IMG/VR virus record: IMGVR_UViG_3300038345_000087
Location: 42,651-106,650 of that record
Strand: one strand, 5' to 3'
DNA length: 64,000 bases
From: a virus
Taxonomy: Duplodnaviria; Caudoviricetes
Position numbers and translations under genes: made by a program. The notes below the pieces were generated by a model. It made no database searches. It saw nothing but the letters and a program-made list of their open reading frames with translations, and was not told the DNA's origin. Positions within the stretch are counted from its first letter, which is position 1; the number at the start of each line of letters is the position of its first letter. This document shows positions 252-62,810 of this stretch, in pieces.

Positions 252-374
252 TGACCATCAACTCTTCACAAGATGGCATCGTGGTTTCTCCTTGGGGCAT
301 TTCTCCTACACACACAGCCGGTCATGGTAATATGCCCAAGGTAATAGTAGAATACGACTTGTAAAGCCACTGTT

Positions 375-402
375 TCCGATGGATCTCCATCGGGTCTTTT
401 TT
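375..402 (+). terminator. Hairpin element copy with U-tract, probable intrinsic terminator
   Basis: tccgatgg-atct-ccatcggg then tctttttt, just after a stop at 364. Confidence 0.6.
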
Positions 403-447
403 GTCGTTTTTGTATGCAGCATGGTTTGCCCATGCTGTTTTTCATTT

Positions 448-481
448 GTTCCGTTCCCCTCCTCTTCCCTTTGTATCTTTG
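448..481 (+). promoter_or_regulatory. Putative phage late promoter (GTTCCG-N20-TATCTTTG)
   Basis: Bacteroidetes -7 box at 474-481 with GTTCCG exactly 20 nt upstream; precedes ORF 520. Confidence 0.7.
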
Positions 482-519
482 CCTTGTAAATAATGTAAAA
501 TCCTAAATAAATCAAAATT

Positions 520-1659
520 ATGCTTATCTCCTCCGTTGAAGAACTGCGTCTCTACGCTCCTGCCAATGCCATCGATCATATCGAAACACTGGCTGGTTTT
601 CTGGATAGTTCTGAACACGATTTCCTTGCTGAGAAATTGGGTCATCCTCTTCACGCTTCTCTCACGGAATACTATCAGAACCTACTCAACTCTGAAGATG
701 GCCTTGCTGATTATATCCAATCCATCACCAACGGTATAGAAATGCCTCCTTACGCACGCCTCTTGACTGTGGCACAGCGCATCGTGGCTTTTGATGCTCT
801 TGGTCGTGCTATTGACATGCAAGCCATCAGTGTGAATGGTGCTGGCATCAATATCTCCACGGCTGATGACTACGCAAAGGCTGATCGTGAAGCGGTGTCA
901 GCTTACAAAAGTACGTGCATCAAAGAGGCACATGCGGCTGTCAATCGCCTTTTGGTCCTTCTCGAAGAGTGGACGAAGGATGCGGTAGAAGATACGGATC
1001 CTGTGCCAGACGGCTCTTCTTCGGGTTCCGAGGAAGAGGAAGAACAGACCACTCCAGAACAGGAGAAATCAGAAATCGCCCGTCTTTGGCGTTCTTCTCG
1101 ATTTTTCTACCTTGCTGCTGGTCTCATTATTCCGTCGGCAATAGTCCTTCAAGACTATCTCAATATCTATGAGTCTCGTGAAAAATTCATCACTTTGCTT
1201 CCTGAACTTCGTACCATTCAGGAGGACATCATAGCACCCATTATTGGAGAGGATTTTATGGACTATCTTATCGCGTTCTCGCGTGATCCGAAACCTTCTT
1301 TAGAAGCCTCCGTGCAAGAAGGTGATTCCTCTGGTCTTTCAGAAGCAGACGTGCGCCTTCTTTCTCGCATCCTTCATCGACTTCGCAAGGCTGTAGCACG
1401 TCACTTGGAATCGCGTACCATGCAGATGAAGCTCACAGACCCGCGTCGCAATGCGGCCCATAATGAGGCGGTACAGTTGACAACGGATCTTGCAGACTAT
1501 ATCGCCGCTCATCAGAGCGACCTACCAACGGATGCCATCACTGCTTTCACCACCTCCCCATTGTATAAACCTACGGATGTGACCACGGAGGAAGAAGTAC
1601 CCTCTTTTGAGAACAATGCTCCCGATTCTGTCATTTTCGTTACTCCTGCTCTGTCCTAA
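520..1659 (+). CDS. Conserved phage protein, possible head-tail connector
   Basis: 379-aa ORF leading a structural operon; function inferred from context only. Confidence 0.5.
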   Translation: MLISSVEELRLYAPANAIDHIETLAGFLDSSEHDFLAEKLGHPLHASLTEYYQNLLNSEDGLADYIQSITNGIEMPPYARLLTVAQRIVAFDALGRAIDMQAISVNGAGINISTADDYAKADREAVSAYKSTCIKEAHAAVNRLLVLLEEWTKDAVEDTDPVPDGSSSGSEEEEEQTTPEQEKSEIARLWRSSRFFYLAAGLIIPSAIVLQDYLNIYESREKFITLLPELRTIQEDIIAPIIGEDFMDYLIAFSRDPKPSLEASVQEGDSSGLSEADVRLLSRILHRLRKAVARHLESRTMQMKLTDPRRNAAHNEAVQLTTDLADYIAAHQSDLPTDAITAFTTSPLYKPTDVTTEEEVPSFENNAPDSVIFVTPALS

Positions 1660-1672
1660 ATCATAAATCAAT

Positions 1673-7200: not shown

Positions 7201-9952
7201 TAGGTATAGTAATGGTACGGGTTATAAAGATAATGTTATCTATAGAAATGGCAATTATGCTCAGATAGCTAAAAGTTCGCCTTGGGTGGTTAATACTCCG
7301 TGGATGGATGAGGTGGAAGAGATTTCAACAGCAGTTAATAATATAATAGCTGCTTATCGCGATGTTCGCAGTAAAGAAAAAGAGGTACATGACGCATTTG
7401 ATGGTTTGGTGGGTGATTGGGATGCAGATTTCAGATCTTTAACTGGTGATGAACCGCCTGGATCACTTGATAACAACGCCCCTGACAAAGACGCTCTTCG
7501 TCGTGCCAAAGAAGAAGCTGCTCGCCAGAAGAAACAATGGCGTGATGATCTCAAAGAGGCTCAGGACCGCGCACGCGCCATCATTGATAACATCAAGAAT
7601 TTCTACCAGCGTCAGATTAACGAGGTACTTCGTACTGCCAACGAACAGAATTGGGACACCTCACTCACGGATGCTGCCGTCCGTGCCGTGGAAGGTCGCA
7701 TGAACCTCGCCCTCTCCAATGCTCGCAAGGCGATTGCCGGTGTGCAAAACGATTGGGGCACATTCAAGACGGAAATGGCCGCTGATATGCGGGAAATGGC
7801 GGATGAAACGGGTTATAATGAGTCTCAGCTGTTGTTGAACAGCATTCAAGAGGCTGATCCAGATGCCATCCGTAACCTGATTATGCAACTGTCCTCTAAC
7901 CTCGAATTGCCTCAGAATGCAGCCATCGATGCCATCTGGAAGAATGCTTCGCACAATGAGACGAACATCGAGACAGCTGAACAGAAACGACGCAGGGAGG
8001 TACAGAAGCGACTCCTGGATGACAACTTCACTGGTAAGGTGGATAACGAATACACTAATTCGATGGAAACTCTCGGTTTCTTCGACCTCTCTTCCGAACA
8101 GGCTAACACGTTGCTTGCGGGAGGGGAGGATGCTGAAGCCTTGCTCCAACGTCGTGCTCAGGAAATAGGACAAGTGTTGCAACGTGCCCGTGAGACGAAC
8201 TTGTTTGCAATCCAAGATAAATACGGATTGATGGAGGCTTTGTTTGGTAAGGATTGGCAGTCACAACCGACCGAATTGGCACATGTGCTTGAACTGACTG
8301 GCGATGACCTTCAAGTGTTCTATCGCGAACTGATTAAATACTCTGACTCTTATACTGAAGCCCTCAAACGCTCCCGTGAACGCCAGAAGAAAATCCTTGA
8401 TGAGCAATGGATGAAAACTACCACATTCCATGCTAATGAGGATGCTCAGAAACAGACACAAATGCTTGCTTCTGGTGTGGGACAGTTTTCGGCGAATGTG
8501 CAACAGCAACAGGAGGCGGGCGAAAGCGTACCGCGTAAGGACACCTATGGCACGGCATCGTTTATCTCTTCGATGGGACATGACCCAGAGATAGATTCTT
8601 ACCGTTTGAAGATGGAGGCTGCTGCTGCTTATTATGACTTCCTCAAAGCGCATCAAGCGGATGCTGAAACACTCCGTGACGCAGAACAGGCAATCCTTCA
8701 GTCAGAAATGGAGTATGCTAAATCGGTGGCAGAACAGATGAAGCAGCGCATCAATGACATCTACGAACTTGCTGCTCCTATCGAGGACTTTGGTACAGAG
8801 GTGGGCGAAGCGTTCGCTACGATGACCGAGGATGCAGAAGAGGGACGTAAGGCCATGAAGAAGGCCATCGGCTCCATGATTAAAGCCTTTATGAAGCAGA
8901 CCGTGGAAATGTCAAAGGAGTACATCAAGCGTCGCATGATGCAGAAGATGAACGACAAACTGACATCCAAGGCCATGAAGAAGTCTATCAAACTGGAGAC
9001 TGGACTCGAACAGGATAAGCAAGATGCCGTTCTGGATGTGGCAAAGCAAGGCGGACAAGCTCGTACCTTCCTGAATGAAGAGGTGGAGGGCGATGTACTT
9101 CAGGCAAAGAAGGAAATCGGCAACGAGACTTTGATCACGCAACAGACACAGACGCAACAGGAGGTGCAGACCGAATCATCCAAGACTCAGGCGAACACCA
9201 CAATGGGTATTGCCAGTGGTGCGTCTAAGATCATCGGCTCGCTTGGTTGGTGGGGCATTCCGCTTATCGCCGTTATCACTGCCTTGCTGAATGGCCTCCT
9301 GTCTTTTGCCATGAGCAAGGTGTCCTCGCTTTTTGGTGGAGGCAAGGAGGCTGGTGGCGATGAAGGTCCTAACGTCAAACTGGCTTCTGGTATGTTGACA
9401 TACGACTCTGGTAACGTCCAAGCCTACGCGGGTGTTATCGATGGCAAGACTTACCCCGTTGTGGGTTCCGACGGCAAGGTGTATGCAGCAAAGGATGGCG
9501 GCGAACTTTCTACGGGCCTTGTGAAAGACCCCATCACAACGCTCATCAATGGTCAACCGGCTCTCGTAGCAGAAAAAGGCCCTGAAATGGTGATCGGTAG
9601 AGAAACAACAGCCGCAATGATGATGGCTCGGCCTGATATTATCGCTGAGATAGTGAAGTTCGATAAGAACCGCTCTGGCCAAACGTACCGTGCTTACGAT
9701 GCTGGTAATATCGCGGAACTGATAGCCAATGGTACTGTGCCAAACGGTTTACCCGTTGGGGAAAATGGCCTCACTCCCGAAGATATTGCCTCTCTCCGTT
9801 CTTCTCTGGATGGCTTTGCCGCTGTCATGGCTCTTATACAGAAGAATGGCTTGCACGTCAACAAGTTTGGTCGCGGGTCTGTCACAGAGGCTTCCGCATC
9901 CGGCGCAAAATTCATGCGTCAGAACTCCGGCGATCGTCTTTGGCGTGGGTAA
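4226..9952 (+). CDS. Tail tape measure protein
   Basis: 1908 aa, helical and Ala/Lys/Gln-rich; TP901-type core (FSDQLADIRKVSGL...NIVEFSKRL); hydrophobic segments. Confidence 0.9.
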   Translation: MDKKTEVVITCNSKQPVAAVRAMETELKKLQGTYQQLVQAGKAGTERAKTMAHEIKELSIAIKEGKANMDKIVSVTNNLSQSSLSQLQRALRQVKKEMSRVSTDSPKLDDLRMKYKAITDQIKILSGEMLNIKKHIGNLSGVTDSWLQKAVQQQKALVQQTRQGTSEYNKQMSVLSQLSTEQARRAVSTISSGTASAEQLRSARAALVSHRDMIGSGGIQVQGNQATEIAKINEELKKADAQLDTIAGKEQKLVYSTQEIADKANQIIMDPKKFTPKEIETALTNVNNKLKEIPLNDPFRKQLKQSATQLKAILDGVDKELIDIKNLLQPQNLKKASLEQLKNAATQLEKEMAKLNRDTQEYINKKSQLATIRGEIDKATGSVHKQSSAWQTTLRNMSAYFGAFQLFSMAIQKVQAFFRLNLKFSDQLADIRKVSGLAMQDINNLANSLAKLDTRTTIQELNEIAYAGAKLGMGKYGTAGLEQFVRAANQVNVALKEDLGQDALTALSKITEVMGLIPKMGVEKSMLAVGSAMFQLSATSTATSNNIVEFSKRLTGMARTAGITTDQLLALGSASDAMYLMPEVASTAFNKLITSLQTKHNLIEQELQIEPGTINNLYSAGKTMDAIVLILEKMKAKGNMNALQGVFKDLGSEGARLVNVMVTMSKNVDMLKDHLATSEEAFSEATAVTQEYAIQQETANALMERASNIWEKSFINPKGVDNVKELAQQWYNLTRTLTESTFFMAQAKAAIWLLISSIKILIALLPVLIEFFLFRGAYAAIMAVVRGFVALRTAIQAATVAQHGLNAAQKANLFGLIATLIAAAVSWFITYREKAEDAAEAQQTVNHALADAQAEYMKTKKKLDDYVKALDDANISEDTRQRLLRSFNKDYRIYLDKLGIEVNSVNDLKTAYAKLNDEIKKKAYYELRERTLQSYVGDAQTEQANAMIEFQKVMKKYGLDVNADYVVNNQHLGMVGATRKLLEEHAGAKFVGRYSNGTGYKDNVIYRNGNYAQIAKSSPWVVNTPWMDEVEEISTAVNNIIAAYRDVRSKEKEVHDAFDGLVGDWDADFRSLTGDEPPGSLDNNAPDKDALRRAKEEAARQKKQWRDDLKEAQDRARAIIDNIKNFYQRQINEVLRTANEQNWDTSLTDAAVRAVEGRMNLALSNARKAIAGVQNDWGTFKTEMAADMREMADETGYNESQLLLNSIQEADPDAIRNLIMQLSSNLELPQNAAIDAIWKNASHNETNIETAEQKRRREVQKRLLDDNFTGKVDNEYTNSMETLGFFDLSSEQANTLLAGGEDAEALLQRRAQEIGQVLQRARETNLFAIQDKYGLMEALFGKDWQSQPTELAHVLELTGDDLQVFYRELIKYSDSYTEALKRSRERQKKILDEQWMKTTTFHANEDAQKQTQMLASGVGQFSANVQQQQEAGESVPRKDTYGTASFISSMGHDPEIDSYRLKMEAAAAYYDFLKAHQADAETLRDAEQAILQSEMEYAKSVAEQMKQRINDIYELAAPIEDFGTEVGEAFATMTEDAEEGRKAMKKAIGSMIKAFMKQTVEMSKEYIKRRMMQKMNDKLTSKAMKKSIKLETGLEQDKQDAVLDVAKQGGQARTFLNEEVEGDVLQAKKEIGNETLITQQTQTQQEVQTESSKTQANTTMGIASGASKIIGSLGWWGIPLIAVITALLNGLLSFAMSKVSSLFGGGKEAGGDEGPNVKLASGMLTYDSGNVQAYAGVIDGKTYPVVGSDGKVYAAKDGGELSTGLVKDPITTLINGQPALVAEKGPEMVIGRETTAAMMMARPDIIAEIVKFDKNRSGQTYRAYDAGNIAELIANGTVPNGLPVGENGLTPEDIASLRSSLDGFAAVMALIQKNGLHVNKFGRGSVTEASASGAKFMRQNSGDRLWRG

Positions 9953-10036
9953 TTCGCAAGGAGTCGCCAAAGGCTCCCACATTGGGTTCTTTTCAATAAA
10001 AGTTCGGTATGGTTTTCCCATACCGTTCTTTTTTTT

Positions 10037-10092: not shown

Positions 10093-11220
10093 ATGGCCGT
10101 ACATATCAATCTTCACCTTCCGACTTCCTATAACCGCTGTTCTCTACCAGAACTGCGTGCTATCGCTGCTGTTATGAGTGACTGTGCCCTTCGTGCTTCC
10201 CGTTTCCATCCGTTTGACATGATGGAAGTGAAGGTGGCCGTGTTTCTCAGACTGACAAACCTCGAAATAGTAGAACCGCTTAATCCACGTGTTCCTGTTG
10301 AGGAACAGTACTACGTTGTGCGCACGCTTCCCTATACTGTCAATGATGAAGAAAGAAGGTGGTTCCGTGTGTTTCGATGGCATCGCAACTTAAAAGCGTG
10401 GTGCCGTCGCCATATCCTCGGACATGATGATTCCTTTTCGCTGTATCTCTGGCAAATACACTCCTGGTTATCTTCATCTAAGAGTCGTGTGACGGGAAAG
10501 GTTACGCCTGGCCTTTTGGACTGGCTGGATGCCGACAACCCAGATTCGTTACTTATATTCCCGTTATCTTCCATTCGTCGAAGTCACCGTGCCAGATGGT
10601 TTCCCTTCGGGTCTAAAGTTACTTTCGCTGGCCCCGCACCCCTGATGGATGGATTTAGTTGGCAACGCTATCGCTTTGCTCAGGACTATATGCAGAATTA
10701 TATCAACGCATCCAATCGCCTTCTCCAGTTGCAAAAGATGGGTAATCGCGCTTCTGCTGCCGACATCCTCCGCGCCTCCAAGAATCTTGACCTCGCAAAG
10801 GCTTTGTTCCTGGCTACCATTTTTTGTCGTCGCATCACTTATGTGGATGAAGAAACGGGGCGTACTAAGACGGATTATCGCTACCAATCTAACCAACATA
10901 TAGACAATGCGCCATATTTCCGAAACTTCCCTGATACGGACTGGCAACTGGTCTTGTTGTGGTGGCAGGGTATGATGCACTACTTACAAAAGACGTACCC
11001 TAAAGTTTTTAAGAAACAAAAGGTATCGAAGGATCAGAAGGCGGCTAATCCGCTTGAACTCTATACTCGCACAACGGCCACAATGGAGAAATACATATCT
11101 GCCACGGCTTCTGAGGTGGATCACGAACCTTATACGACAATTCTTCAACATATCGAAGATATCATCAAGAATAACGAGGAAATGGAACGCATCAATGCTT
11201 CCATGAAACGTAAATCATAA
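10093..11220 (+). CDS. Hypothetical phage protein
   Basis: Long ORF; ATG at 10093 preferred over TTG at 10081 given the promoter position. Confidence 0.6.
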   Translation: MAVHINLHLPTSYNRCSLPELRAIAAVMSDCALRASRFHPFDMMEVKVAVFLRLTNLEIVEPLNPRVPVEEQYYVVRTLPYTVNDEERRWFRVFRWHRNLKAWCRRHILGHDDSFSLYLWQIHSWLSSSKSRVTGKVTPGLLDWLDADNPDSLLIFPLSSIRRSHRARWFPFGSKVTFAGPAPLMDGFSWQRYRFAQDYMQNYINASNRLLQLQKMGNRASAADILRASKNLDLAKALFLATIFCRRITYVDEETGRTKTDYRYQSNQHIDNAPYFRNFPDTDWQLVLLWWQGMMHYLQKTYPKVFKKQKVSKDQKAANPLELYTRTTATMEKYISATASEVDHEPYTTILQHIEDIIKNNEEMERINASMKRKS

Positions 11221-25524: not shown

Positions 25525-25568
25525 TTAGTGTGCTCGGTGGTTTCCTCACCGAGAAAAATCCAAACGAT

Positions 25569-36735: not shown

Positions 36736-37113
36736 ATGCCTACAAAGAAGATTATCGGTCGAATTATTCCCTTCTCGCGTGGGGAGTATGACGCTACCTA
36801 CAATTATGACGTGTTAGACCAGGTACAATCGGCTACGGCTATTTACCAGTCTCGTAAACCAAACAATCTCGGACACCCCGTGACTGACACGGAATGGTGG
36901 ACGAAGTACTTTGACGTTGGCGCGGCTATTGAAGCGGCCACTTCACAAGAGACTCCTGAAGCTCAGTCTGGTGCGGTGGTGCGTCGTATCATGGCAATCG
37001 ATCAGAACGGACAGCCTTGTTCCATCACGCCCGCTGTTCTGGTGAACTACGTGCTTGAAAACCTCCTGTCTTACGACCTTTTGGCCATCGAGCGTAACAA
37101 CAACGACGATTAA
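36736..37113 (+). CDS. Small structural protein
   Basis: RGEYDATYNYDVLDQV...NLGHPVTDTEWW motif of phage tail accessory domains. Confidence 0.55.
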   Translation: MPTKKIIGRIIPFSRGEYDATYNYDVLDQVQSATAIYQSRKPNNLGHPVTDTEWWTKYFDVGAAIEAATSQETPEAQSGAVVRRIMAIDQNGQPCSITPAVLVNYVLENLLSYDLLAIERNNNDD

Positions 37114-37157
37114 AGTACTGTGCCCCGTGGTTTACTCACGAGGATAAAGATTAGAAT

Positions 37158-39635: not shown

Positions 39636-39982
39636 TAAGGCGGGTCATTGGCCAGCCGGCTTGCGTGACCGCTCCTGCTGGCCATGACCGCCTCTGTCGC
39701 GTATTTAGCAACCACTAATAATAAGTAGTAATAACCATTTAACAAAATCATCAGAGGACAGGCCGCAAGCGGCGACCATCCTAAAACAATTTGACATATT
39801 GAGACAACGACGTGGAACAGGTTGTACTTCCTGAACACACATAAACCAATAAGCATCTTTGCCGAGGAAGAGTTGAATAGTTCGAGATTCTTCTACAGCT
39901 TTCTTGGAGAACAAAGGTGTAGGGACGGAGTGATTGGTGGTTCTCCACCGAGAATTTCATCCCGAAAAGGCAATAAATCGTG

Positions 39983-40093: not shown

Positions 40094-40381
40094 AAATTTT
40101 ACACTAATTATCCACTGTTTATCTCTACCGGCCTCGTGTAGGTCAACGGGGATGAGCACACGATTGAGCCTGACTCGATGGAAGGATATAGGGTGTGCAA
40201 AGCGGTTTTCCCGCTTTGACCTCCTATCCTGACAGAGCGAACACATAAAGGCGTAGGGTGTTATGAGTCCCCTCGCGCAAGTAAGCAAGGCAGTTGTACG
40301 CCTATACCGAAAGCCCGTGAGCCGAGAAGTGTAGAAGGCATAACCGTTTCCGTAATCAATTTGTCTCGTAAAAGAAGAACG

Positions 40382-41728
40382 ATGGCTGAAGAGTTGGCAT
40401 ACAAAAGAAAGGCAAGCCGTCGCGGTAAGAACCGCAAGGTGCGCATCGCCCAAGTCTATGACATGGGCAACCTACGTATGGCAGACCGTGAGGCACGAAA
40501 AGGTAAGGATGCACATAAGGGTGTTCGCATCTTTGACCGTAATCCAGAAAAGAACCTTCAGACCTTGCAGGACCAACTTCGCACAGCCACATACCATACT
40601 TCGCCAGGACATGAATGTGTGCGCCATTGTCCCTGTGGAAAAGACAGACTGCTGCATAAGCTGCCGTACTATCCAGACCACGTAGAGAACCATGCGCTCA
40701 TGCAGATCATCATGCCGATAATGATGCGGGCATATTACTATGACTCGTCGGCATCTATAAAAGGTAAAGGTATGCACTTCGCAGCACAACGCACGGAGCG
40801 TTATATCGATGCACATAAGTATGCCGGTCGTATCTATTATGCCAAACTGGACTTCGTGAAGTTCTATCACAACATCAATCAGAAGAAGATTAACCATGTC
40901 CTGAGTCGAAAGTTCGGCGATAAAGGCATACGTTATCTGATTTGGGAGATTGTTTCAGCATGTGAGGAGGGATTAGGCATAGGATTGTTCCCGATTCAAC
41001 CGATGGCGAATTTCTACACTTGTGCGCTATGCCGTCTGTTGATGGCTCTCTTCGACGTATGGGTAGAGATTTATTGTGATGATATGGTCATCATGGGTCT
41101 TGATAAGAAAGAAGTATGGCGTGCCGTGAATTTCGTCAGGAAGTATGCTGAAGAGGTGATGGAACAGCCGTTGCATGACAATATCGGTGTGCAGATTATC
41201 GACGAACATCACGGACTCGATTTTGTCGGGTATCAGTTCTTCTTTAATCATACGTTGCTCAGAAAACGTATGAAAGCCAAGTTCAAACAGAAGATGCACC
41301 GTCTGAAAGACCCTATGCGTCGCTATCAGGCTGCTACTTCATATAAGGGATGGCTCATGCACTGCAACGGATTCAACCTCTGGTGTAAGGTGATGCACAT
41401 GAAATCGTTTAAGGATCTCCAAGTTCCGAAGTTTGAGAAGAAGGATGCCGATGGTAAGCGTATGCTTGAAGGTACGAAGGTGTCAGCCTCCATGCTCTGC
41501 GGACGTGAAGTTGTCTTTACGGATGTGGAGTTGGGCGTGAAGTCTAAGTATAAGAAGAACGCGGCCATCGTACAGGTGGAGGATAACGGACAAAAGTTCA
41601 AGTTCTTTACGTGTAACCAGAAACTCATTCAGACGCTCGAATATATCAATACCCATGACGGCTTCCCGTTCACGGGCACCATCGTTCGTGCCAACAACGC
41701 GGGATTGCCTGACTACGAGATTACATAA
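40382..41728 (+). CDS. DGR reverse transcriptase with C-terminal extension
   Basis: NL..A...ARKGK, KDR, KLDFVKFY, GIG...Q..AN.Y, YCDD, GLDFVGY, LLRK; about 110 extra C-terminal residues; start may be TTG 40361. Confidence 0.95.
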   Translation: MAEELAYKRKASRRGKNRKVRIAQVYDMGNLRMADREARKGKDAHKGVRIFDRNPEKNLQTLQDQLRTATYHTSPGHECVRHCPCGKDRLLHKLPYYPDHVENHALMQIIMPIMMRAYYYDSSASIKGKGMHFAAQRTERYIDAHKYAGRIYYAKLDFVKFYHNINQKKINHVLSRKFGDKGIRYLIWEIVSACEEGLGIGLFPIQPMANFYTCALCRLLMALFDVWVEIYCDDMVIMGLDKKEVWRAVNFVRKYAEEVMEQPLHDNIGVQIIDEHHGLDFVGYQFFFNHTLLRKRMKAKFKQKMHRLKDPMRRYQAATSYKGWLMHCNGFNLWCKVMHMKSFKDLQVPKFEKKDADGKRMLEGTKVSASMLCGREVVFTDVELGVKSKYKKNAAIVQVEDNGQKFKFFTCNQKLIQTLEYINTHDGFPFTGTIVRANNAGLPDYEIT

Positions 41729-41798
41729 TCTCTGTGCCAAACGGTTCTCCCGTTTGGAAAGAAAGGACTAAGTATAAACCCTAAAATATCAGTAAAAA

Positions 41799-42461
41799 AT
41801 GAAGAAATCTGAATTTTACGAGAATCCCGCTGCTGTTACTCTCGAAGGTAACGTGCTGCGTATCTGCTTCGACAAAGAAGAAGCAGATGAAGTGATCAAC
41901 AACGAAGTGGAAGGACAGGAGCCTGAGACGCGCAAGGTCTATAAGGCGTTTGTGGTCCGTGTTAGCGAACCTTTCACCCTCGACAATGTGGCTCAGGCCG
42001 TACTGAAGGAGGGCTTCGATGAGTTCAAAGCTGTGGGCGTGGCCGCCGAAGCTCTGCTTTTGGCTACACAGCAGGGTATCGTCTCTGGCAATGCGCTGGA
42101 ACTGGCTCGTCAGATGGTCATCGCACGCATCAATGCCTACGATGCTTCTGAAAATGTCAATCAGTTCTCCTACAACGATGTCCCCATGTGGCTTGACAAA
42201 GACACACGCAATGGTCTCATCGCTCGTCTGAATGCTGAGAAGGCCGTTGGTAAAGAGACATCGACGCTTTGGCTCGGTACACAGTCATTCACCATTACTC
42301 CTGATGCCGGCCTTCAGATGTTGTCCGCGCTCGAAGTGTATGCGTCTGAGTGCTACGATAAGACTGCCGAACATAAGGCTGCTGTCGTTGCAATGAATGA
42401 CGTAGAGACTATCGTCGCCTACGACTTCACCGCCGGTTATCCCAACCACCTCGCATTTTAA
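41799..42461 (+). CDS. DUF4376-like tail-fibre-associated protein
   Basis: INAYDASENVNQF...WLDKDTRNGL...LEVYASECYDKTAEHKAAV...YDFTAGYP. Confidence 0.7.
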   Translation: MKKSEFYENPAAVTLEGNVLRICFDKEEADEVINNEVEGQEPETRKVYKAFVVRVSEPFTLDNVAQAVLKEGFDEFKAVGVAAEALLLATQQGIVSGNALELARQMVIARINAYDASENVNQFSYNDVPMWLDKDTRNGLIARLNAEKAVGKETSTLWLGTQSFTITPDAGLQMLSALEVYASECYDKTAEHKAAVVAMNDVETIVAYDFTAGYPNHLAF

Positions 42462-42553
42462 GTAGTGCGCCCGCTGGTTCTTCCAGTGGGTTCACCACTG
42501 GTGCTCGGTGGTTGCACGCCGAGGAGTTCTAAACCCGTAATAACGTATCAAAA

Positions 42554-50914: not shown

Positions 50915-51611
50915 ATCTCTTTTCCACATCATCCTCGGTACTGCACACCTCGACACAACGCCTGGTAAATGTGCCCCCGACCGCTCTATCCGCGAAGCGA
51001 TCTATTCCCGTGAACGTATTGTTGCCATCAATAAGGTATTGAAGGCGCAAGGCTACAACACGCATATAGACTATCCCGACCTTCAACCGAATAGCCTTAT
51101 CAAGGCTTCCTATTGGAAAACAGAGCAAACACGCGAACTCCAGTACCGTGTGAAGGTGGTCAACGACCTATGCCGTAAGTATGGTGCTGCAAACTGCCTC
51201 TATGTGTCTCTACATCTCAATGCTGCCGGCAATGGCGGACAGTGGATGAATGCAGGAGGATGGGCTGCTTACACCACCGTAGGTAAGACCAACTCAGATA
51301 TCGCCGCTGAACACCTCTATGTCGCTGCTGAATACTGCCTTGCACCATACGTAACTATCATGGCTGAAGGTAAGAAGAAGGGCATCTATTCTAAGGCGCA
51401 ACGTCCGTTCCGCACGGACACTACAGATGGTGATCGTGACCTCGAAAGCAATTTCTACGTCATCAAACACACATCATGTCCGGCTGTCCTCACAGAAAAC
51501 CTCTTCCAGGACAACCGTTCGGATGTGGCTTTCCTCCTTTCTGACGAAGGAAAAGCGGCTATTGAACAGCTACACATCGACGGTATCAAGACCTACATCG
51601 CCTCCCTGTAG
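50907..51611 (+). CDS. Endolysin, N-acetylmuramoyl-L-alanine amidase (Amidase_3)
   Basis: GTAH, RE, VSLHLNA, PAVLTENLFQDN. Confidence 0.9.
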   Translation: MNKSLFHIILGTAHLDTTPGKCAPDRSIREAIYSRERIVAINKVLKAQGYNTHIDYPDLQPNSLIKASYWKTEQTRELQYRVKVVNDLCRKYGAANCLYVSLHLNAAGNGGQWMNAGGWAAYTTVGKTNSDIAAEHLYVAAEYCLAPYVTIMAEGKKKGIYSKAQRPFRTDTTDGDRDLESNFYVIKHTSCPAVLTENLFQDNRSDVAFLLSDEGKAAIEQLHIDGIKTYIASL

Positions 51612-51643
51612 TGTGCCCGTTGGCTTGACCAACGGGAAAATTT

Positions 51644-51701: not shown

Positions 51702-53558
51702 ATGGCTAAAAGAACAAAAACATCGCCGATTACCCACGTCCGCTCTGATCAGTTCCTCAAGAAAGCGGTGCAGATGGCACAGGATAATTTCTCAGTCCTG
51801 TCGCCTGGCGACCAGTCGTTTTATAGCGACCCGACACCCGCAACTTGGGCAGACTTCATCGGTGCCCAACTGCGTGGCGCAATAGGCTCGAATGGGGCTT
51901 ACCAACGCAAACAGGCTCCAGTACTCTATTTCTCGTCTGGAAACGAAATCAAGCAGGGTACGGAGAAGTCTGGAACGAAAGACTTGGGATTCATGGAATG
52001 GGGATTCGGCAATACGCTCCCCAATCTTGTGGCGTTTTTGACACATCTTCTTCCATACACTGCTGCTGGCATCAAGTTCAATACAGACCTCTGTGCGGGT
52101 CTTGGACCACAACCGATGTATGACACGGCTCAGTATGTAGGTGGCAATATCACCACACGCTTCATCCGTTATAAGGATGCGGGCACCTTCCTTCGTGGCC
52201 AAATCATCGACAAACAGCGTGAACTTCTCAAACTACGCTCGGAGTGGCCGTCATCCTCGCAAACTCATCCTGACGGTGGCAGTTCTGAGGGTGATGCCTC
52301 CGAGGGTAGTGTGCTCAGTGGTTTGCCCACCGAGGATGACCCTGCAAAGAAGATTTATGATGAACTCTGTGCCACACTTGAAGAACAAATCGAAGAATTG
52401 CAGACAGCCTTGGAGTCGTGGAAAACCACCAACGATGAAGTGCAGAAGTTCCTCGACCGCAATAATATCGCACAGACATGGCTTTCGCTCGTTCTCGACC
52501 ATGAATTGTTTGGTATCGCCTTCCCTGAGTTGCTGTTGAACCAACAGGATCTTGGGAAAGACGGCAAACCCGTGGAAACTGAGGTGTGGAATCCAAAGGT
52601 GACGGGCATCGCGCATCGAAGCTGCCACACCACACGTCTGGAGCGTATGGATGATGAAGGTATCATCAATTTCGTCTATTGCTCAAATCGCTGGCTCGAC
52701 CGTGTGTTTGTGGAACAGGGCAATATCAATGACCCCATCAATGCCATTCCTTCACTGAACACAAGGGAACCGCTGAACTCGCTGAATGAAAAGGTGCGAA
52801 AGGCACGCCAAAACAAGGTAAGCGTAAAAGAACGCCCGACCCATTTTGTGCTGCCATCGGTTTATCCTACTGCTGGTCGCCCCTACTACCCTACCCCTGC
52901 ATGGCATTCTATCTTTGGCGGGGATATCTACGAATATATCTCGACCATTATCAGTGACCGTCTGAATCGTAAGCGTAACAGCAATATCATTGGCCGTGTC
53001 ATATACCTTAATAATGAGTATATGCAGCAACTCTTCGTACAGAAGAAGGCTACGGGCGATGAGAATAAGCAGAAGGTTATCCGTGATAAACTATACAGCC
53101 AGATTAACACCTGGCTCGGTAATCGTAACAACGCCGGTCAATCGCTGCTGGCATTCACTTTCACTGGTGCCGACGGAAAGGAACATAAGTCTTTTGAAAT
53201 AGTCGAAATTGAGGCAGCAAAGAAATCCACTGCCGATGCCAATGAGAAGGAAACGGCTGAAATCAGTTCCATCGTGTTCATGGCGATGGGGCTTGATGGT
53301 CGCCTTATGGGTTCCTCCCCGCTCTCACTCGTAGGATCAAATGGCGGCACGGATATTCGCGAACGCTATCTCTTGCGCCTCCTGATGAAGTCACCGGCAC
53401 AGAACATCCTCCTTAAACCGTTTGAGGTGCTGTCTCGCTTCAATGAATGGGATAAACACCTCGTTTGGCAAGTGCAACGTGAGGTGATGACTACACTCGA
53501 CCGCTCAAAGTCTGGAGTGACCTCTCAAAACACCGAAAATGAGAGTCAGCAAAAGTAG
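51702..53558 (+). CDS. Probable portal protein
   Basis: 618 aa; WGFGNTLP, YYPTPAW, NAGQS, GGTDIRE motifs recalled from Bacteroidales phage portals; no other portal candidate. Confidence 0.65.
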   Translation: MAKRTKTSPITHVRSDQFLKKAVQMAQDNFSVLSPGDQSFYSDPTPATWADFIGAQLRGAIGSNGAYQRKQAPVLYFSSGNEIKQGTEKSGTKDLGFMEWGFGNTLPNLVAFLTHLLPYTAAGIKFNTDLCAGLGPQPMYDTAQYVGGNITTRFIRYKDAGTFLRGQIIDKQRELLKLRSEWPSSSQTHPDGGSSEGDASEGSVLSGLPTEDDPAKKIYDELCATLEEQIEELQTALESWKTTNDEVQKFLDRNNIAQTWLSLVLDHELFGIAFPELLLNQQDLGKDGKPVETEVWNPKVTGIAHRSCHTTRLERMDDEGIINFVYCSNRWLDRVFVEQGNINDPINAIPSLNTREPLNSLNEKVRKARQNKVSVKERPTHFVLPSVYPTAGRPYYPTPAWHSIFGGDIYEYISTIISDRLNRKRNSNIIGRVIYLNNEYMQQLFVQKKATGDENKQKVIRDKLYSQINTWLGNRNNAGQSLLAFTFTGADGKEHKSFEIVEIEAAKKSTADANEKETAEISSIVFMAMGLDGRLMGSSPLSLVGSNGGTDIRERYLLRLLMKSPAQNILLKPFEVLSRFNEWDKHLVWQVQREVMTTLDRSKSGVTSQNTENESQQK

Positions 53559-53622
53559 TGTGCTCGGTGGTTCGCCACCGAGAATAAATAGTAATTGGTA
53601 AATCGTCAAATAGTAAATAAAC

Positions 53623-54657
53623 ATGGCTTCCGGCTTGAACATAGAAGGTGCTTCGCCTCTCATCGGCTCACCAATCACTTATAAGGTACGCGCTGCTACT
53701 ATCAGTGGCTCGGTGGCTTTCCATCGCGTCAAACTGACAGTACACGCGGCTTTGGATGGTGATACGGCTTATACCGACCTCACGCTTTCCTCTCCTGCTG
53801 AAAGTGGCGAATGGCTGCATTTCGACATCAGTTCCGCCTTGCGTGCTGTGGCCGATCGCTATGAATATACCTATACTCCTCCGGCTTCATATCCGCGTGT
53901 CCGTTACACATTATCTGCGTGTGATGAATACATGCAGAATGGTGAAGTGCATGACAACGTAGGTCCCACAAGTATTGATACACCTCAGTATTGTCTTATG
54001 GGGGCATACTCTGATCTTGAAAGGCTGTTGGCGACTTCTGGCTCTAAGTCAGCACAGCACTTCACACGCAAACCTAACACCTCTCCTGAAGTGGTGGCCA
54101 TCGGCGAAATAATGGTGTGTCCGCAATCTTTCGTCTCTCCTGTTACTTCTGGTTTGGCGACTGTCGGGCCTACGTCTCAGGAGGTGACTATCACTACGGC
54201 TGGATTACAGACCGTCAATGGCCGTCAGGTGTTCGCCGTACCCGCTCAGGATGACCGCTATGAGTTCCGTTTTGTCAATGGCCTTGGTTGTCTCGAAAGC
54301 GTGTCTGTGCGCTCGTATCGTACCACGGAAATGAATGTGTTATCTGAGTCTTATATTCGTTCCGTTCAAGAGACATTTGGCTCTTTCTCTCGTGGACTTG
54401 TGACGAAGAAAAACGATTATGAGACTTGGAAACTCTCTTCTGGTCCGCTTGATGCTGCATGGGATTCTTGGTTCCTGCATGAGTTCCTGATGGCGAAGTT
54501 CGTATGGGTGAAGATTGATGGGAATTGGATAGGGTGCCATATCGTTCCTGATGAGACGGTAAATGGACCAGACCGCACACAAGTTGGATTCTTTGAAGTC
54601 CTCTTCTCTGTACGTCTCGATATCAATGGCAGTCCCTTCGCTGCCCTCGCAATATAG
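53623..54657 (+). CDS. Structural protein (tail/baseplate)
   Basis: FDISSALRA and FRFVNGLGCLES motifs. Confidence 0.55.
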   Translation: MASGLNIEGASPLIGSPITYKVRAATISGSVAFHRVKLTVHAALDGDTAYTDLTLSSPAESGEWLHFDISSALRAVADRYEYTYTPPASYPRVRYTLSACDEYMQNGEVHDNVGPTSIDTPQYCLMGAYSDLERLLATSGSKSAQHFTRKPNTSPEVVAIGEIMVCPQSFVSPVTSGLATVGPTSQEVTITTAGLQTVNGRQVFAVPAQDDRYEFRFVNGLGCLESVSVRSYRTTEMNVLSESYIRSVQETFGSFSRGLVTKKNDYETWKLSSGPLDAAWDSWFLHEFLMAKFVWVKIDGNWIGCHIVPDETVNGPDRTQVGFFEVLFSVRLDINGSPFAALAI

Positions 54658-54702
54658 TCACTGTGCCTCACGGTTCCCCCGTGAGGATAAATGTAGTAAG
54701 GT

Positions 54703-55305
54703 ATGAAAGCTAATTTAAGTCGCATCCTCGAAACATGGGCAAAACTTTACACACCCATCGCGCACAACCCTAAAAAAGGCTCGAAAGATAAAGCCTTCTA
54801 CCGCATAAAGACCATCAATGAGCAATCGGAATTTATGCGTAATCAGAACACGGCTAAATCGCCGTGTATGGCTTATTCTATCCTCGTGGATGCTGAAGCA
54901 TCTGGAACAAAGGAAATCAGTTATGCTCATACCATCTACTTCCTTTCGAGGGCAAAAACAAACTCTCTTGCAAAATCGGCTAAACAGGATGATGATTTGG
55001 GTGAGAACATGCAGATGGAAATGGATGACTTCGTGCAAGATCTTCTCGCCTATCTTAAAGAACTGCGTCACAATGGCAAATGCCCTATCACGGGTGACAC
55101 TTACGACGAATATACGATGAAGGCCCTACGTGGCATCAACCTCGAAAAAGCGGAATGGGCTTCTATTCCCGTCAAATATGGGGAGTGGCACATACTTGGC
55201 CTACAACTGGAACAGTTCGCCCCGCGCCTTCTTTGCATCAATCGTGAAAAGTACGCCACCGTGTCAGACAGTTCCCCGTCGGACGAATCAACAGACAATC
55301 CGTAA
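54703..55305 (+). CDS. Hypothetical, possible tail completion protein
   Basis: 200 aa in the structural block. Confidence 0.5.
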   Translation: MKANLSRILETWAKLYTPIAHNPKKGSKDKAFYRIKTINEQSEFMRNQNTAKSPCMAYSILVDAEASGTKEISYAHTIYFLSRAKTNSLAKSAKQDDDLGENMQMEMDDFVQDLLAYLKELRHNGKCPITGDTYDEYTMKALRGINLEKAEWASIPVKYGEWHILGLQLEQFAPRLLCINREKYATVSDSSPSDESTDNP

Positions 55306-55817: not shown

Positions 55818-56390
55818 ATGGAAAACTTCAACTATCAGGAACCATGCTGCATCGAACGTAGCCTACCTATTCTCATCCGTCAGTACGGATGGTTGCCTTG
55901 GCAGTCGAATGGTGATATCACTATCGACAAAATCCTCAAGGCGGTAAGTCACCTCGCGGGAAATAGCATCGCCATTTCCTTGTGTATTCCAGTCATTGAC
56001 ATCGACGTTTTACGCATCCTTTCATGGTACCACAAACGTGGATGGCTCACAAGCCTGGAAATTGTCACGTCGGAGGATCAGACTGAACTCATCCGTGCAG
56101 AACTGCCAAAAGAATTGTCCGTGAACATCATTTCGCACGCATCGGTTAAAGAGACCTCTCCGCTGCTGGTGATTAAAGGTGAAAAGCAGACGGTCATCGT
56201 GCAAGGCCCGTTGCATACGACCATCGCATCTACTCCGATTCGTGAGAGCTTCATAACCTATGCGGGCAATGACCAGGAACGTATCGCACAGTTCACGGCG
56301 ACGCTCTCCTCTCTCATCCATGTTGCTACTCGCAAGAAAACGAACAAAAAGAAAGCCACCGTGTCCGATGGTTCTCCGTCGGATGAATAA
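55818..56390 (+). CDS. Hypothetical protein
   Basis: Packed ORF ending in an in-frame hairpin copy. Confidence 0.6.
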   Translation: MENFNYQEPCCIERSLPILIRQYGWLPWQSNGDITIDKILKAVSHLAGNSIAISLCIPVIDIDVLRILSWYHKRGWLTSLEIVTSEDQTELIRAELPKELSVNIISHASVKETSPLLVIKGEKQTVIVQGPLHTTIASTPIRESFITYAGNDQERIAQFTATLSSLIHVATRKKTNKKKATVSDGSPSDE

Positions 56391-56401
56391 CTCTGTTCAT
56401 T

Positions 56402-56977
56402 ATGAATATCTTTGCTAAAATACGCGAAAAGCGTGCTCAGAAAGCACAACTCCGACGCTTCGGACAGTTTGCAAACGTATTCGCTTCTCTCCAGCGTCTT
56501 GAAAAGAGTGGACTCCTGGCATGGGAAGCGAAGTCGCGCCGTCTCTTTATTGCACAACCGCTTGCTGTGGTGATGTTGGCACAAGGGTATGACCGCTGGC
56601 GTAACTTCCTCAATAATGTGTTCCTATACCACATGTATAACCTCCAAAACCGTCAGTGGCAGGATCACATTATCAATGAACAGGCGAAGGCCGTCCGTCA
56701 ACGCAAAAAGGAGGTGGTGGTCTTGACGAAAGCAGAAACAGAACGCATCCGTCGTGCTGTGCGTGACAATATCCCTGCTGAAGCAGTTGAATTGCCTCCT
56801 ATCAAACCTTTTGAGTTCTTCATTATCGCTGATACCGCCACTGTGACCGACGCTTCTCCGTCGGAGCAACCCAAGGCTGAAATCACATGGGTGGGCGAAT
56901 ATGACCCAGATACCGGCACACTTGATATGGCCGAATGGAAAGACATCAAACATGTCATCAAAGATGGAAACAAATAA
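56402..56977 (+). CDS. Hypothetical protein
   Basis: Packed ORF. Confidence 0.6.
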   Translation: MNIFAKIREKRAQKAQLRRFGQFANVFASLQRLEKSGLLAWEAKSRRLFIAQPLAVVMLAQGYDRWRNFLNNVFLYHMYNLQNRQWQDHIINEQAKAVRQRKKEVVVLTKAETERIRRAVRDNIPAEAVELPPIKPFEFFIIADTATVTDASPSEQPKAEITWVGEYDPDTGTLDMAEWKDIKHVIKDGNK

Positions 56978-57656
56978 CGATTACTTCACCCGCTTTCAGA
57001 ACCTTTGCCTCTCCATTCTTGCACAGTCTGATAACTGTCAGGAGTCGCAAGATATGTTCCGTGCCACAAAGACCATACCTGAATTGGTGTCGGCGTGGCA
57101 ACGCTATTGGGCGGGACTGCTTCACGAGGTGCCAGAACAGGTTATAAAAGCCTTCTCGCAGTTCTATCCAACGTATCGTGATGACATCATCTGTGCTGGT
57201 GTGTACTACAACGAGGCTCCTCCTATTGACCACATCACACCTTCCATCATCCTCATTGGTGATGCTCCTGAAGCCACGGTGCCAGAAGGTTCTCATTCGG
57301 GTGTCTCTCCATTGGAAGTCTTTGGCCGTCACCGCGTCTATGTGCTTGGGAATCTACCCATCATCGCACATGACAACTGCAATGTCTTGGTGAACTCTTC
57401 ACGTTCCAACGTGACACTTCACGATAACTGCCGTTGTAACCTCGAAGCTGGAAACGTCATTCTTCACGACCGCTCTATGCTCAATGGCTCAGGAAATGTC
57501 ACATGCTACGATTCCACAACCATCTTGCTCATGGGAGGAACTTTGCATGACAAAGGACACCTCGATATAACAGCCTATAATGATGCTGTCATTCACACTT
57601 TCACATCCCGCAAGATTACTCTCAATGACAAAGCAAAAATCTACTTCGATAAATGA
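56964..57656 (+). CDS. Hypothetical protein with beta-helix-like C-terminus
   Basis: Repeating AHDNCNV / LHDNCRC / LHDRS / CYDST / AYNDA. Confidence 0.6.
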   Translation: METNNDYFTRFQNLCLSILAQSDNCQESQDMFRATKTIPELVSAWQRYWAGLLHEVPEQVIKAFSQFYPTYRDDIICAGVYYNEAPPIDHITPSIILIGDAPEATVPEGSHSGVSPLEVFGRHRVYVLGNLPIIAHDNCNVLVNSSRSNVTLHDNCRCNLEAGNVILHDRSMLNGSGNVTCYDSTTILLMGGTLHDKGHLDITAYNDAVIHTFTSRKITLNDKAKIYFDK

Positions 57657-61223: not shown

Positions 61224-61244
61224 GCCACCATCAAAGCCACTGTG

Positions 61245-61273
61245 CCCGAAGGTTCTCCTTCGGGTCTCTTTTT
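61245..61273 (+). terminator. Hairpin element copy with U-tract
   Basis: cccgaagg-ttct-ccttcggg then tctcttttt. Confidence 0.65.
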
Positions 61274-61402: not shown

Positions 61403-61789
61403 ATGAGTAATTCACAGAAACTTCAGACAAAGGACAAAGAACTGGTGCCTGAGTGGTACATCGCAAAGCGTATCATCCGCTCAAAAGGCTTTACATACGG
61501 CCAACTCGCCGAAAAACTCGGTGTGTCCGTGACCACCATTCACGACCTCTGCAACTTCCCGCCTAACGTCGTTCGCGTCAAGCAGCTTGCAGATGCTATC
61601 GGATGCTCCTTTTTTGACTTCTTCGATTTCAACCAGGCATCAAGCACCAACGATGGTGCCACCGTTCCCGATGGATCACCATCGGGTAGTCCCGTAAGTG
61701 GCGATGCTGGTGCTGCCGAAACACCTCAGTCTGGATTTACATGTCCTCACTGTGGGCAACCCCTCTTCTTAACGACTTCCCCTGAATAG
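61403..61789 (+). CDS. XRE-family HTH regulator with C-terminal CPHCG motif
   Basis: KGFTYGQLAEKLGVSVTTI...KQLADAIGC. Confidence 0.85.
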   Translation: MSNSQKLQTKDKELVPEWYIAKRIIRSKGFTYGQLAEKLGVSVTTIHDLCNFPPNVVRVKQLADAIGCSFFDFFDFNQASSTNDGATVPDGSPSGSPVSGDAGAAETPQSGFTCPHCGQPLFLTTSPE

Positions 61790-61834
61790 TGTTCCCATCG
61801 GTTTCCCCGATGGGTTTCCCTTAATCTATCGATT

Positions 61835-62257
61835 ATGTTCTCCACTCCAGAAGCAACACCATACAGCGACCCAAACGAGCACGTAGAACCTTACATCGCT
61901 CCTTCTCTCTTTCCATCTGAGGAGAGTCCTGTATGTTGCGATGACATCGCAACTGAAGCCACCGTGTTAGAAGGTTCTCCTTCAGGTTCTTCCGTTGCTT
62001 CTGAAGAAACACCCCCTTATGTCATCCCGTATTCCGAAGTATTAAACCGCAAATATGGCTTAGAGGCCACCATGCCAGAAGGTTCTCCTTCTGCTCCTCC
62101 TTCTACATTTCGCAAGATCATCGTGAACATCTGCATCGTTCTCGCCTTCGTCGCCAACATTATCTTTTTCCTTCCTCTCTGCCTCCTCGGTCTCTTCGGT
62201 CTCTCCAAACATCCATTCCTCGGCTACTTCATGTTCCGCGACATGCTCCGCCGTTAA
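61835..62257 (+). CDS. Acidic low-complexity protein with C-terminal TM anchor
   Basis: Two in-frame hairpin copies; hydrophobic C-terminus. Confidence 0.55.
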   Translation: MFSTPEATPYSDPNEHVEPYIAPSLFPSEESPVCCDDIATEATVLEGSPSGSSVASEETPPYVIPYSEVLNRKYGLEATMPEGSPSAPPSTFRKIIVNICIVLAFVANIIFFLPLCLLGLFGLSKHPFLGYFMFRDMLRR

Positions 62258-62277
62258 TTCCCTCAAGAAACACTCTT

Positions 62278-62742
62278 ATGCGTCCTATCAAATTCCGTGG
62301 CAAATGCACTCCTGATAGCCAATATGATCGCGAATGGGTCTATGGCGGATATGTGCTATGTGAGAAAAGTAAAGATGCGCTAATCATCAGTGCCTACACC
62401 GATATATGCACATCTATACGTCATGTTATCTCTAAAACTGTTGGTCAATTTACCGGCCTCCATGACGCAGATGGTAATGATATTTATGAAGGTGACATCC
62501 TTCAGTCTCTTCCCAAGGAAGAATATCTACGTCAAATGGAGAAAGACGGCATGGTTCCAATGGAGTATATGCCTGAACAATTAAACTGGAACTATGATAC
62601 AAAAGTCATAGTAACCTACAAAGATTTCTTGTTTGACCTTATTGAGGTTTCTGAACAACCTCGTACATTTTTCCTCAACCATCCAGACTACTGGCGTGTT
62701 ATAGGAAACATCCATGACAATCCAGAACTCGTGATGAAGTGA
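62278..62742 (+). CDS. YopX-family protein
   Basis: MRPIKFRGK, TVGQFTGLHDADGNDIYEGDIL, VIGNIHDNPEL. Confidence 0.85.
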   Translation: MRPIKFRGKCTPDSQYDREWVYGGYVLCEKSKDALIISAYTDICTSIRHVISKTVGQFTGLHDADGNDIYEGDILQSLPKEEYLRQMEKDGMVPMEYMPEQLNWNYDTKVIVTYKDFLFDLIEVSEQPRTFFLNHPDYWRVIGNIHDNPELVMK

Positions 62743-62782
62743 AGAATTGCTGATCTTCTCTTACATTATGTTCATTTCTGTG

Positions 62783-62810
62783 CCCGTTGTTCACGCAACG
62801 GGTTTTTATT
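62783..62810 (+). terminator. Hairpin element copy with U-tract
   Basis: cccgttgt-tcac-gcaacggg then tttttatt. Confidence 0.65.

Follow-up and report, generated by a model that had tools for sequence, protein, structure and literature searches.

A leader-hairpin element confined to one strand of a rumen phage genome is shared with Prevotella-type bacteria and unrelated phages and resembles dispersed palindromic repeats

We analyzed 64,000 nucleotides of a rumen phage genome (the window; bases 42651-106650 of the 106,650-bp IMG/VR virus record IMGVR_UViG_3300038345_000087), along which a recurrent element consisting of a short leader and a hairpin had been noticed from the letters of the sequence (hereafter the original prediction). 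Nearly all window genes lie on the plus strand, and annotation is sparse. They include genes for a 1908-aa tape-measure-like protein, a protease-like protein, a 424-aa capsid-like protein, and an amidase, as well as a primase/ThyX block and a diversity-generating retroelement (DGR). No tRNA genes were found in the window, and no close or near-identical phage records were found. The record is classed as linear; the first 109 bases of the genome (1-109) recur at 106542-106650 with 97/109 identity, constituting an imperfect terminal repeat.

The element is a unit of ∼27 to 42 nt comprising a leader (YASTGTG), an 8-bp GC-rich stem, a 4- to 6-nt loop starting with TT(C/T), and a short tail. The consensus of 20 aligned copies is nnnGnTAGTGTG-CCCGnTGG-TTCnn-CCAnCGGG. 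Two forms of the leader occur, TAGTG(T/C)G and CCAC(T/C)GTG, for which YASTGTG is the common pattern, and TAG or TAA often precedes it. In many copies, TAG or GTAG lies 4 to 8 nt from the stem but does not directly abut it. The hairpins are stable (-13 to -16 kcal/mol), and both strands of the element fold equally well. Both the dominant leader and the dominant stem arm are genome specific, the latter being CCCGCTGG in 6 of 27 copies in the studied phage and CCCAGCCG in 16 of 49 copies in its relative G002.

We built a covariance model (R1) from the 20 aligned copies and ran it over both strands of the whole 106,650-bp genome. It returned 30 plus-strand hits in the window, in line with the roughly 30 same-strand hairpins of the original prediction, and the stem arms quoted there for 10 sites were present at all 10. 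All 26 genome-wide hits at E < 0.1 were on the plus strand, as were 36 of 40 at E ≤ 10; minus-strand hits were few and appeared only at weaker E values, and three of the four mirrored plus-strand copies. In the window, the minus strand gave only two hits, both of them such mirror images. A simple rule-based detector found 23 copies on the plus strand and 2 on the minus strand of the window, whereas 40 dinucleotide-shuffled sequences yielded 0.25 copies on average and never more than 2. In element-free sister phages, the same detector found 0 to 2 copies per strand.

Pairing in the seed alignment was 99.4%, and 7 of 8 pairs covaried, but these figures are partly circular because the seeds of the alignment were picked for pairing, and we therefore placed more weight on comparisons among phages and hosts. 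The claim that G-T pairs outnumber A-C mismatches did not survive a detector that treats both alike. The overall ratio of 44:34 was not significant (13:6 in four phage genomes, 13:10 in other phages, and 18:18 in hosts). An Rfam scan of the window at gathering thresholds gave no match, and a scan of 51500-57400 at E ≤ 1 returned nothing relevant.

Eighteen of the 30 window copies are intergenic, and 10 of these start 4 to 16 nt after a stop codon. The stem lies 8 nt past the stop of ORF 24814-25524 in the copy at 25521..25557 (38.3 bits in R1; A-rich tail). Copies also begin 16 nt past the stop of the 424-aa capsid-like gene (31396..31432; 31.7 bits), 9 nt past that of ORF 36736-37113 (37111..37147; 27.6 bits), and 8 nt past those of the DGR reverse-transcriptase (RT) gene (41725..41761; 36.3 bits), a DUF4376 gene (42458..42494; 38.3 bits), and a 344-aa ORF (54654..54690; 39.4 bits; A-rich tail). 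In three copies the leader TAG doubles as the stop codon: that of the amidase at 51604..51640 (33.9 bits), that of a 618-aa ORF at 53551..53586 (40 bits; -14.8 kcal/mol; A-rich tail), and that of ORF 61403-61789 at 61782..61818 (35.8 bits). Two further copies flank the template repeat of the DGR, a weak one 27 nt upstream of it (39921..39956; 17 bits) and one between it and the RT gene (40186..40222; 29.8 bits). Overall, 7 of the 30 copies have an A-rich tail.

A U-tract, defined as at least 8 T within 12 nt after the stem, follows 7 of the 30 copies rather than the approximately 5 first proposed, leaving 23 without one. All seven are intergenic: 363..398 (33.2 bits), 405..441 (a weak copy with the leader TTTGTATG; 25.4 bits), 9993..10029 (weak; 20.6 bits), 28315..28352 (upstream of the protease-like gene, with orthologous copies in relatives; 38.1 bits), 32099..32136 (27.6 bits), 61233..61268 (38.9 bits; -16.2 kcal/mol), and 62771..62806 (31.1 bits).

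The remaining 12 copies lie within ORFs, and 11 of them share one reading frame, which yields peptides such as ATVPEGSPSG. The sole copy off this frame is at 10580..10615 in ORF 10081-11220 (21 bits). Five of the in-frame copies are near the C terminus of the 1908-aa tape-measure-like protein (9728..9764; NGTVPNGLPVG; 28.9 bits), in a linker of the 582-aa protease-like protein (29453..29488; NATVPAASAEG; 19 bits), in the 618-aa ORF (52302..52338; EGSVLSGLPTE; one A-C mismatch; 31.6 bits), at the very C terminus of ORF 55818-56390 (56352..56387; KATVSDGSPSDE, then the stop codon; 33 bits), where orthologues are without this C-terminal extension, and in ORF 61403-61789 (61655..61690; GATVPDGSPSG; 28.8 bits). 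Six degenerate copies complete the set: 994..1029 in ORF 520-1659 (TDPVPDGSSSG; 11 bits), a site at which orthologues are variable; 55252..55287 close to the C terminus of ORF 54703-55305 (YATVSDSSPSDE; 11.4 bits); 56834..56869 in ORF 56402-56977 (TATVTDASPSE; 17 bits); 57270..57305 in ORF 56901-57656 (EATVPEGSHSG; 11.4 bits); and 61955..61990 (EATVLEGSPSG; 16.9 bits) and 62063..62098 (EATMPEGSPSA; 16.5 bits), both in ORF 61835-62257. Outside the window, a 1153-aa protein of the polyvalent type with LPD5 and LPD1 domains (genome 1521-4982) carries three in-frame copies, at 3945, 4615, and 4641.

Some copies coincide with likely boundaries of transcription. The promoter-like motif GTTCCG-N20-TAYCTTTG, which resembles the Bacteroidota -33/-7 promoter pattern, occurs six times on the plus strand of the window (448, 10037, 32180, 36177, 44217, and 51644) and never on the minus strand. 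Five of the six have a hairpin within 50 nt upstream, of which four are family copies and one is not. The motif at 448 lies 50 nt downstream of the copy at 363 and is immediately preceded by that at 405; the copies at 9993 and 32099 precede the motifs at 10037 and 32180, and the copy at 51604 immediately precedes that at 51644. The nonfamily hairpin, a perfect 8-bp stem with a U-tract and without the family leader (44187-44207; CAGCGCGG ctcat CCGCGCTG), is a candidate ordinary terminator before the motif at 44217 and a 2120-aa ORF. Four of the seven U-tract copies sit just upstream of a late promoter-like motif, so that copies with a U-tract probably lie where transcription units end. Judged by position, these seven, together with the copy that follows the capsid-like gene, have probably taken on a secondary use as terminators or 3' hairpins. 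The family as a whole shares with intrinsic terminators a GC-rich hairpin after a gene and, in those seven copies, a place at apparent transcription-unit ends. It differs in its conserved leader and loop, in that a U-tract directly follows the hairpin in only 7 of 30 window copies, and in its frequent location inside coding sequence, both in the 12 window copies within ORFs and in host bacteria, where 65 of 111 copies lie deep in long ORFs, including housekeeping genes.

We compared the window with 28 related contigs, which have ∼50% identity in the protease-like and ∼80% in the capsid-like protein. At related loci, 70 of 71 model hits were on the gene strand, and the whole records of the relatives G001, G002, and G003 gave 11, 34, and 29 hits, respectively, all on one (gene) strand. 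The sister phages G004, G005, G006, and G012 have the same gene order and 0 to 1 hits. On a six-protein tree in which every branch was well supported, G002 and G003 (both with the element) group together, as do G000 (with) and G012 (without), and G001 (with) groups with the pair G004 and G006 (both without), G005 (without) being separate; the presence of the element on this tree needs three gains or losses.

Individual sites tell the same story of patchy presence. Spacers at orthologous junctions are ∼30 nt shorter in element-free phages, and their orthologous proteins have clean gaps of 8 to 11 residues at element positions. For example, at the site of the 37111 copy the spacer is ∼30 nt shorter and the hairpin absent in G004, G006, and G009; at the junction of the 53551 copy the hairpin is absent in G004, G005, G006, and G012; and at the site of the 57270 copy a clean gap occurs in G004, G006, G005, G012, and G009. 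The 40186 copy is absent from G001, where its flanks are conserved. After the capsid-like gene, element-free relatives carry an ordinary A-tract/U-tract terminator hairpin in place of the family copy at 31396. The copy in the protease-like gene (29453) is orthologous in G002 and G003 but with another stem and other residues (LGGSATE versus PAASAEG), and the alignment shows a gap there in G004, G006, G005, and G012. The residues that follow the loop vary with loop length (PDGSPSG versus PDGSAVG), and these changes, with those in the protease-like gene, lead us to conclude that the hairpin rather than the peptide is the unit that is kept.

Turnover is fast enough to be seen between the close relatives G002 and G003 (branch lengths, 0.02 to 0.03), which differ by many 18- to 42-nt indels between conserved flanking sequences. 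A 42-nt unit at G003 78432 is the clearest case; it consists of GTAACCACTACTGTG, the hairpin, and AATAAA. At no fewer than four orthologous loci, the stem is swapped between CCCAGCGG/CCGCTGGG and CCCAGCCG/CGGCTGGG. Together with the genome-specific dominant arms and leaders, this switching resembles the replacement of copies, or bursts that start from one master copy, rather than independent compensatory mutation.

The element also extends to viral contigs that share no protein with the studied phage, which we found by scanning viral contigs for the pattern and then applying the covariance model; multicopy, one-strand occurrences include G185 (21 hits), L108, L144, and L161. These records and the relatives decide how far the predicted restriction to the coding strand holds: it is true of the window, but in relatives, copies within minus-strand genes stay on the plus strand. 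Two conserved minus-strand genes of G002 contain copies on the plus strand with benign antisense frames (PSGETTV and PSQERQGTV), and G003 and G000 have further plus-strand copies antisense to minus-strand genes. In the 61,878-bp record of G185, all 21 copies are on one strand, and two thirds of ORF bases are on the other. G187 has an 8:1 strand bias of copies with 38 kb of ORFs versus 34 kb, and G188 has a 6:1 bias with most ORFs opposite. Given the antisense copies in G002, G003, G185, G187, and G188, we conclude that in phages the element marks a strand of the genome, not the transcript. No true minus-strand copies or inverted doublets were found in element-bearing phages. G185 also encodes an uninterrupted 6434-aa ORF (oriented 37953-57254) that occupies ∼1/3 of the genome, has a methyltransferase-like domain, and contains six antisense copies.

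GC skew on the element strand is negative genome-wide in element-rich phages (G185, -0.126; G003, -0.10; G002, -0.075; G188, -0.074), and element-free relatives of identical gene order have values between +0.036 and +0.052. The exceptions are G186 and G001, which carry copies yet have positive skew. The skew fits a link between the element and replication.

Bacterial genomes carry the same element. A pattern scan of 185,579 species genomes gave matches almost only in metagenome-assembled genomes (MAGs) of Prevotella, Prevotellaceae, Bacteroidaceae, Bacteroidales, and Muribaculaceae from the rumen and gut. Four of five such MAGs had 10 to 26 significant hits over many contigs when 150 of the 600 to 800 candidates per genome were scored. 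The distribution is narrow: only 2 of 121 genomes in a family-wide sample had hits, and no copies were found in the sampled complete genomes of the host genus. Among 111 distinct host copies, 65 lie deep in ORFs of at least 150 codons, on the sense strand and in the frame that the phage copies use; 11 are near an ORF end, and at most 9 are antisense only. By Pfam, the products of the ORFs concerned include UvrA, glutamate synthase (GltB), GH92, an aminotransferase, fucokinase, ClpB, and GH97. In uvrA, the element is present only in the three closest species, within a loop that is variable in the other 29. Orientation in host MAGs follows gene sense and is mixed within contigs, and inverted pairs occur occasionally. 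Because it is present in Bacteroidales hosts and in unrelated phages, the element is not a phage-specific RNA signal. The check for a known repeat of the host thus had a divided outcome, since the host lineage does carry the element, but literature searches for a description of it in Prevotella or Bacteroidetes found none.

Few genes track the element. Across eight near-complete genomes, profiling picked out only a DNA methyltransferase with a DUF4942 domain and a small DGR-targeted gene (window 20008-20514). The methyltransferase (542 aa, C-terminal DUF4942; genome 7553-9181, outside the window) is present in all element-bearing near-complete relatives, and the four without the element all lack it; in G185, only a weak methyltransferase domain is shared. 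Neither gene suggests a mechanism, and we treated the associations as linkage or shared host range. The DGR itself is complete (window 38385-41728), with a variable region in a tail-protein gene (VR1; 39465-39584), the template repeat (TR; 39983-40102), and RT (40361-41728). VR1 and TR differ almost only at template adenines. A second, remote variable region (VR2; 20299-20409) lies in the 168-aa ORF 20008-20514, and 17 of its 20 mismatches are at template adenines.

Taken together, these comparisons suggest, with a probability of roughly 0.55, that the hairpins are a dispersed palindromic element of the repetitive extragenic palindrome (REP) or Rickettsia palindromic element (RPE) kind that acts at the DNA level. 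The element is probably mobile. Of the explanations listed in the original prediction, it is the last, a REP-like mobile palindrome, that the evidence favors. Ogata et al. (2000) reportedly described RPEs in frame in many unrelated protein genes and between genes. RPEs are ∼100 to 150 bp long and confined to Rickettsia, and their mobilizing enzyme is not established. As a kind of element, the one studied here behaves likewise in its in-frame insertion into unrelated genes and its presence or absence among orthologues; it is unlike them in its size (27 to 42 nt) and its occurrence in Bacteroidales and phages, and a relationship in sequence is not expected. Very small mobile repeated elements in cyanobacterial genomes are said to have been described by Elhai et al. 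(2008). The small dispersed cyanobacterial repeats (∼20 to 30 nt) are similarly hairpin forming, apparently mobile, and found in and between genes, although in a different taxon and with a different sequence; we know of no report of phage-host sharing or genome-wide strand polarity for them. RPEs are mentioned in PMC3733652, and PMC3116915 and PMC2884548 cite the cyanobacterial study.

Among the kinds already described, REP elements come closest. These 20- to 40-bp palindromes, tagged with GTAG or CGTC, are located mainly downstream of ORFs; the neighboring ORF often takes its stop codon from their TAG, and some are within repair genes (Di Nocera et al. 2013; PMC3733652). A model for REPINs and RAYTs has been published (PMC3116915). 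The element resembles REPs in its 20- to 40-nt palindrome with an asymmetric leader at one end, the use of a leader TAG as a stop codon, its presence in some genes, including repair genes, its patchy species distribution, and its lineage-specific variants, and both REPs and the phage copies are mostly just downstream of ORFs. It departs from them in that the tag is YASTGTG with the TAG further upstream, whereas the GTAG of REPs is directly against the stem. Moreover, REPs are predominantly extragenic, whereas ∼60 to 70% of host copies are within ORFs (18 of 30 phage copies are intergenic). Other differences from REPs and REPINs are the lack of inverted doublets in phages and of RAYTs adjoining copies, the dense presence in phage genomes, and the strict one-strand polarity.

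We picture a tiny palindromic element common to a subset of rumen and gut Prevotellaceae/Bacteroidales and to several unrelated phage lineages that presumably infect them. Copies would be gained and lost quickly, each genome having its own dominant variant, and would survive at low-harm sites, namely, intergenic spacers just past stop codons and in-frame protein linkers. The strict one-strand polarity in phages, independent of gene direction, may reflect a step in which only one DNA strand is read, the simplest candidate being single strands formed during replication. Conjecturally, the element could enter whichever strand is single stranded, i.e., the displaced strand in phage replication and the nontemplate strand in host genes. 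With lower probability, it may represent a new class of ∼30- to 40-nt miniature element whose enzyme-aided movement via single-stranded DNA would take it back and forth between Prevotella-type hosts and phages, with insertion on the replication-exposed strand in phages and the sense strand in hosts, or else a strand-specific DNA signal that phages keep and that is tied to one-directional replication, with the negative GC skew as a second trace.

Several observations weigh against a REP- or RPE-like mobile element. A mobilizing enzyme was not found among the candidates tested, the Y1 transposase and a DUF559 nuclease. PF01797 (Y1 transposase/RAYT) is absent from the five phage records; only three of the five element-bearing MAGs, which are incomplete, encode it, with no R1 hit within ∼1.5 kb, and we rejected it as a partner for want of flanking copies. 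The DUF559 nuclease was also rejected, as its six loci in element-bearing MAGs had no R1 hit at E ≤ 5, and the palindromes flanking those loci differ in kind from the element. Neither a target-site duplication nor a fixed target sequence was seen at the indels, and the case for mobility comes from comparing genomes, not from observed transposition. Host copies follow gene sense and phage copies the genome strand, so that one mechanism is not obviously enough. Finally, ∼30 to 49 copies are kept per compact phage genome, more densely than in hosts, and leader and loop are conserved across unrelated phages; given this density and conservation, the phages could be making use of the element. The retention of copies across phages with ∼50% protease-like (∼80% capsid-like) identity likewise suggests some purifying selection.

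Selection is central to the main rival, which we consider unlikely, that the hairpins are a strand-specific DNA signal used by the phage, and perhaps by the host, read on single-stranded or unwound DNA and kept by selection instead of selfish spread. It might prime the lagging strand or load a helicase, restrain a host nuclease as a Chi-like site, or mark where nicking occurs or the polarity of packaging. Such a signal would account for genome-wide polarity independent of gene direction in four phage lineages, for the conserved leader and loop, for a density of 0.1 to 0.5 copies per kb in phages, several-fold over the host estimate, for the contrast in GC skew between element-rich phages and element-free relatives, and for the lack of a G-U excess, as a DNA-level constraint predicts. 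It sits poorly with sister phages of the same gene order that do without copies, with fast turnover between close relatives, with the positive skew of the copy-bearing G186 and G001, and with the near absence of copies from the replication-gene block of the studied phage. Host orientation by gene sense, mixed in contigs, is also unexpected for a replication or Chi-like signal. It is improbable that the hairpins are an RNA cis-element of late transcripts, in which a host or phage RNA-binding factor would read leader and hairpin as a site that terminates or attenuates transcription, protects 3' ends, or undergoes endonucleolytic processing. The coding-strand location of all window copies, the 10 copies just past stop codons, the stability of the hairpins, the seven U-tracts, four of them just before promoter-like motifs, and the replacement after the capsid-like gene of the classical terminator of element-free relatives are all as expected of one. 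Yet where copies are antisense to genes (G185, G187, G188, and the minus-strand genes of G002 and G003), the mRNA contains the reverse complement, most host copies are translated within housekeeping genes, G-U pairs do not exceed A-C, 23 of 30 copies are without a U-tract, Rfam gives no match, and some related phages lack the element wholly. The antitermination or pause and the processing or stability functions first suggested thus fit poorly, given antisense copies, translated host copies, no wobble excess, and sister phages without the element.

Two narrower explanations fare worse against the same observations. The copies at 39921 and 40186 lie on either side of the template repeat, that at 41725 comes just after the RT gene, and RT occurs in every element-bearing phage record that covers the relevant region, including the unrelated G185, which might point to a target-recognition hairpin or RNA boundary spread or used by the RT. 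This is very improbable, in that family copies are downstream of neither VR1 nor VR2, where DGR target recognition would place one, the remaining copies are unrelated to TR or VR sequence, and the DGR of G001 is missing the 40186 copy; moreover, RT is rejected as the determinant because G006 and G016 have it without copies. It is scarcely credible that the recurring peptide ATVP-D/E-GSPSG is primary, for instance as a linker or cleavage motif, and that the hairpin merely results from its codons. One frame is indeed common to 11 window copies and to most host copies, and the Gly/Pro/Ser-rich peptides encoded are similar, but 18 window copies are noncoding, the residues past the loop vary with its length, the stem but not the residues is preserved between orthologous copies, and antisense copies encode other peptides (e.g., PSGETTV and PAGKTSGHS). 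The Bacteroidetes O-glycosylation motif is D-(S/T)-(A/I/L/V/M/T); by eye, it is absent from the element peptide. Stop-codon readthrough or frameshifting was rejected as well, since the frame of the upstream gene relative to the element is 0, +1, or +2 among copies.

A habit of this kind is well documented for Rickettsia and for proteobacterial REPs, and we found no published description of it in the phylum of the Bacteroidales or in phage genomes. If the reading as a REP- or RPE-like dispersed palindrome is true, rumen and gut Bacteroidales and their phages have in common a tiny, rapidly turned-over repeat that reshapes loops of proteins and provides genes with stop codons and terminal hairpins. 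Where covarying hairpins follow genes in these phages, host genomes should be checked before the hairpins are called regulatory RNAs or terminators. The one-strand polarity in phages would offer a handle on how such elements spread, a question unsolved for RPEs and many REPs, and sharing of the element could serve as a host-range marker for uncultured phages.

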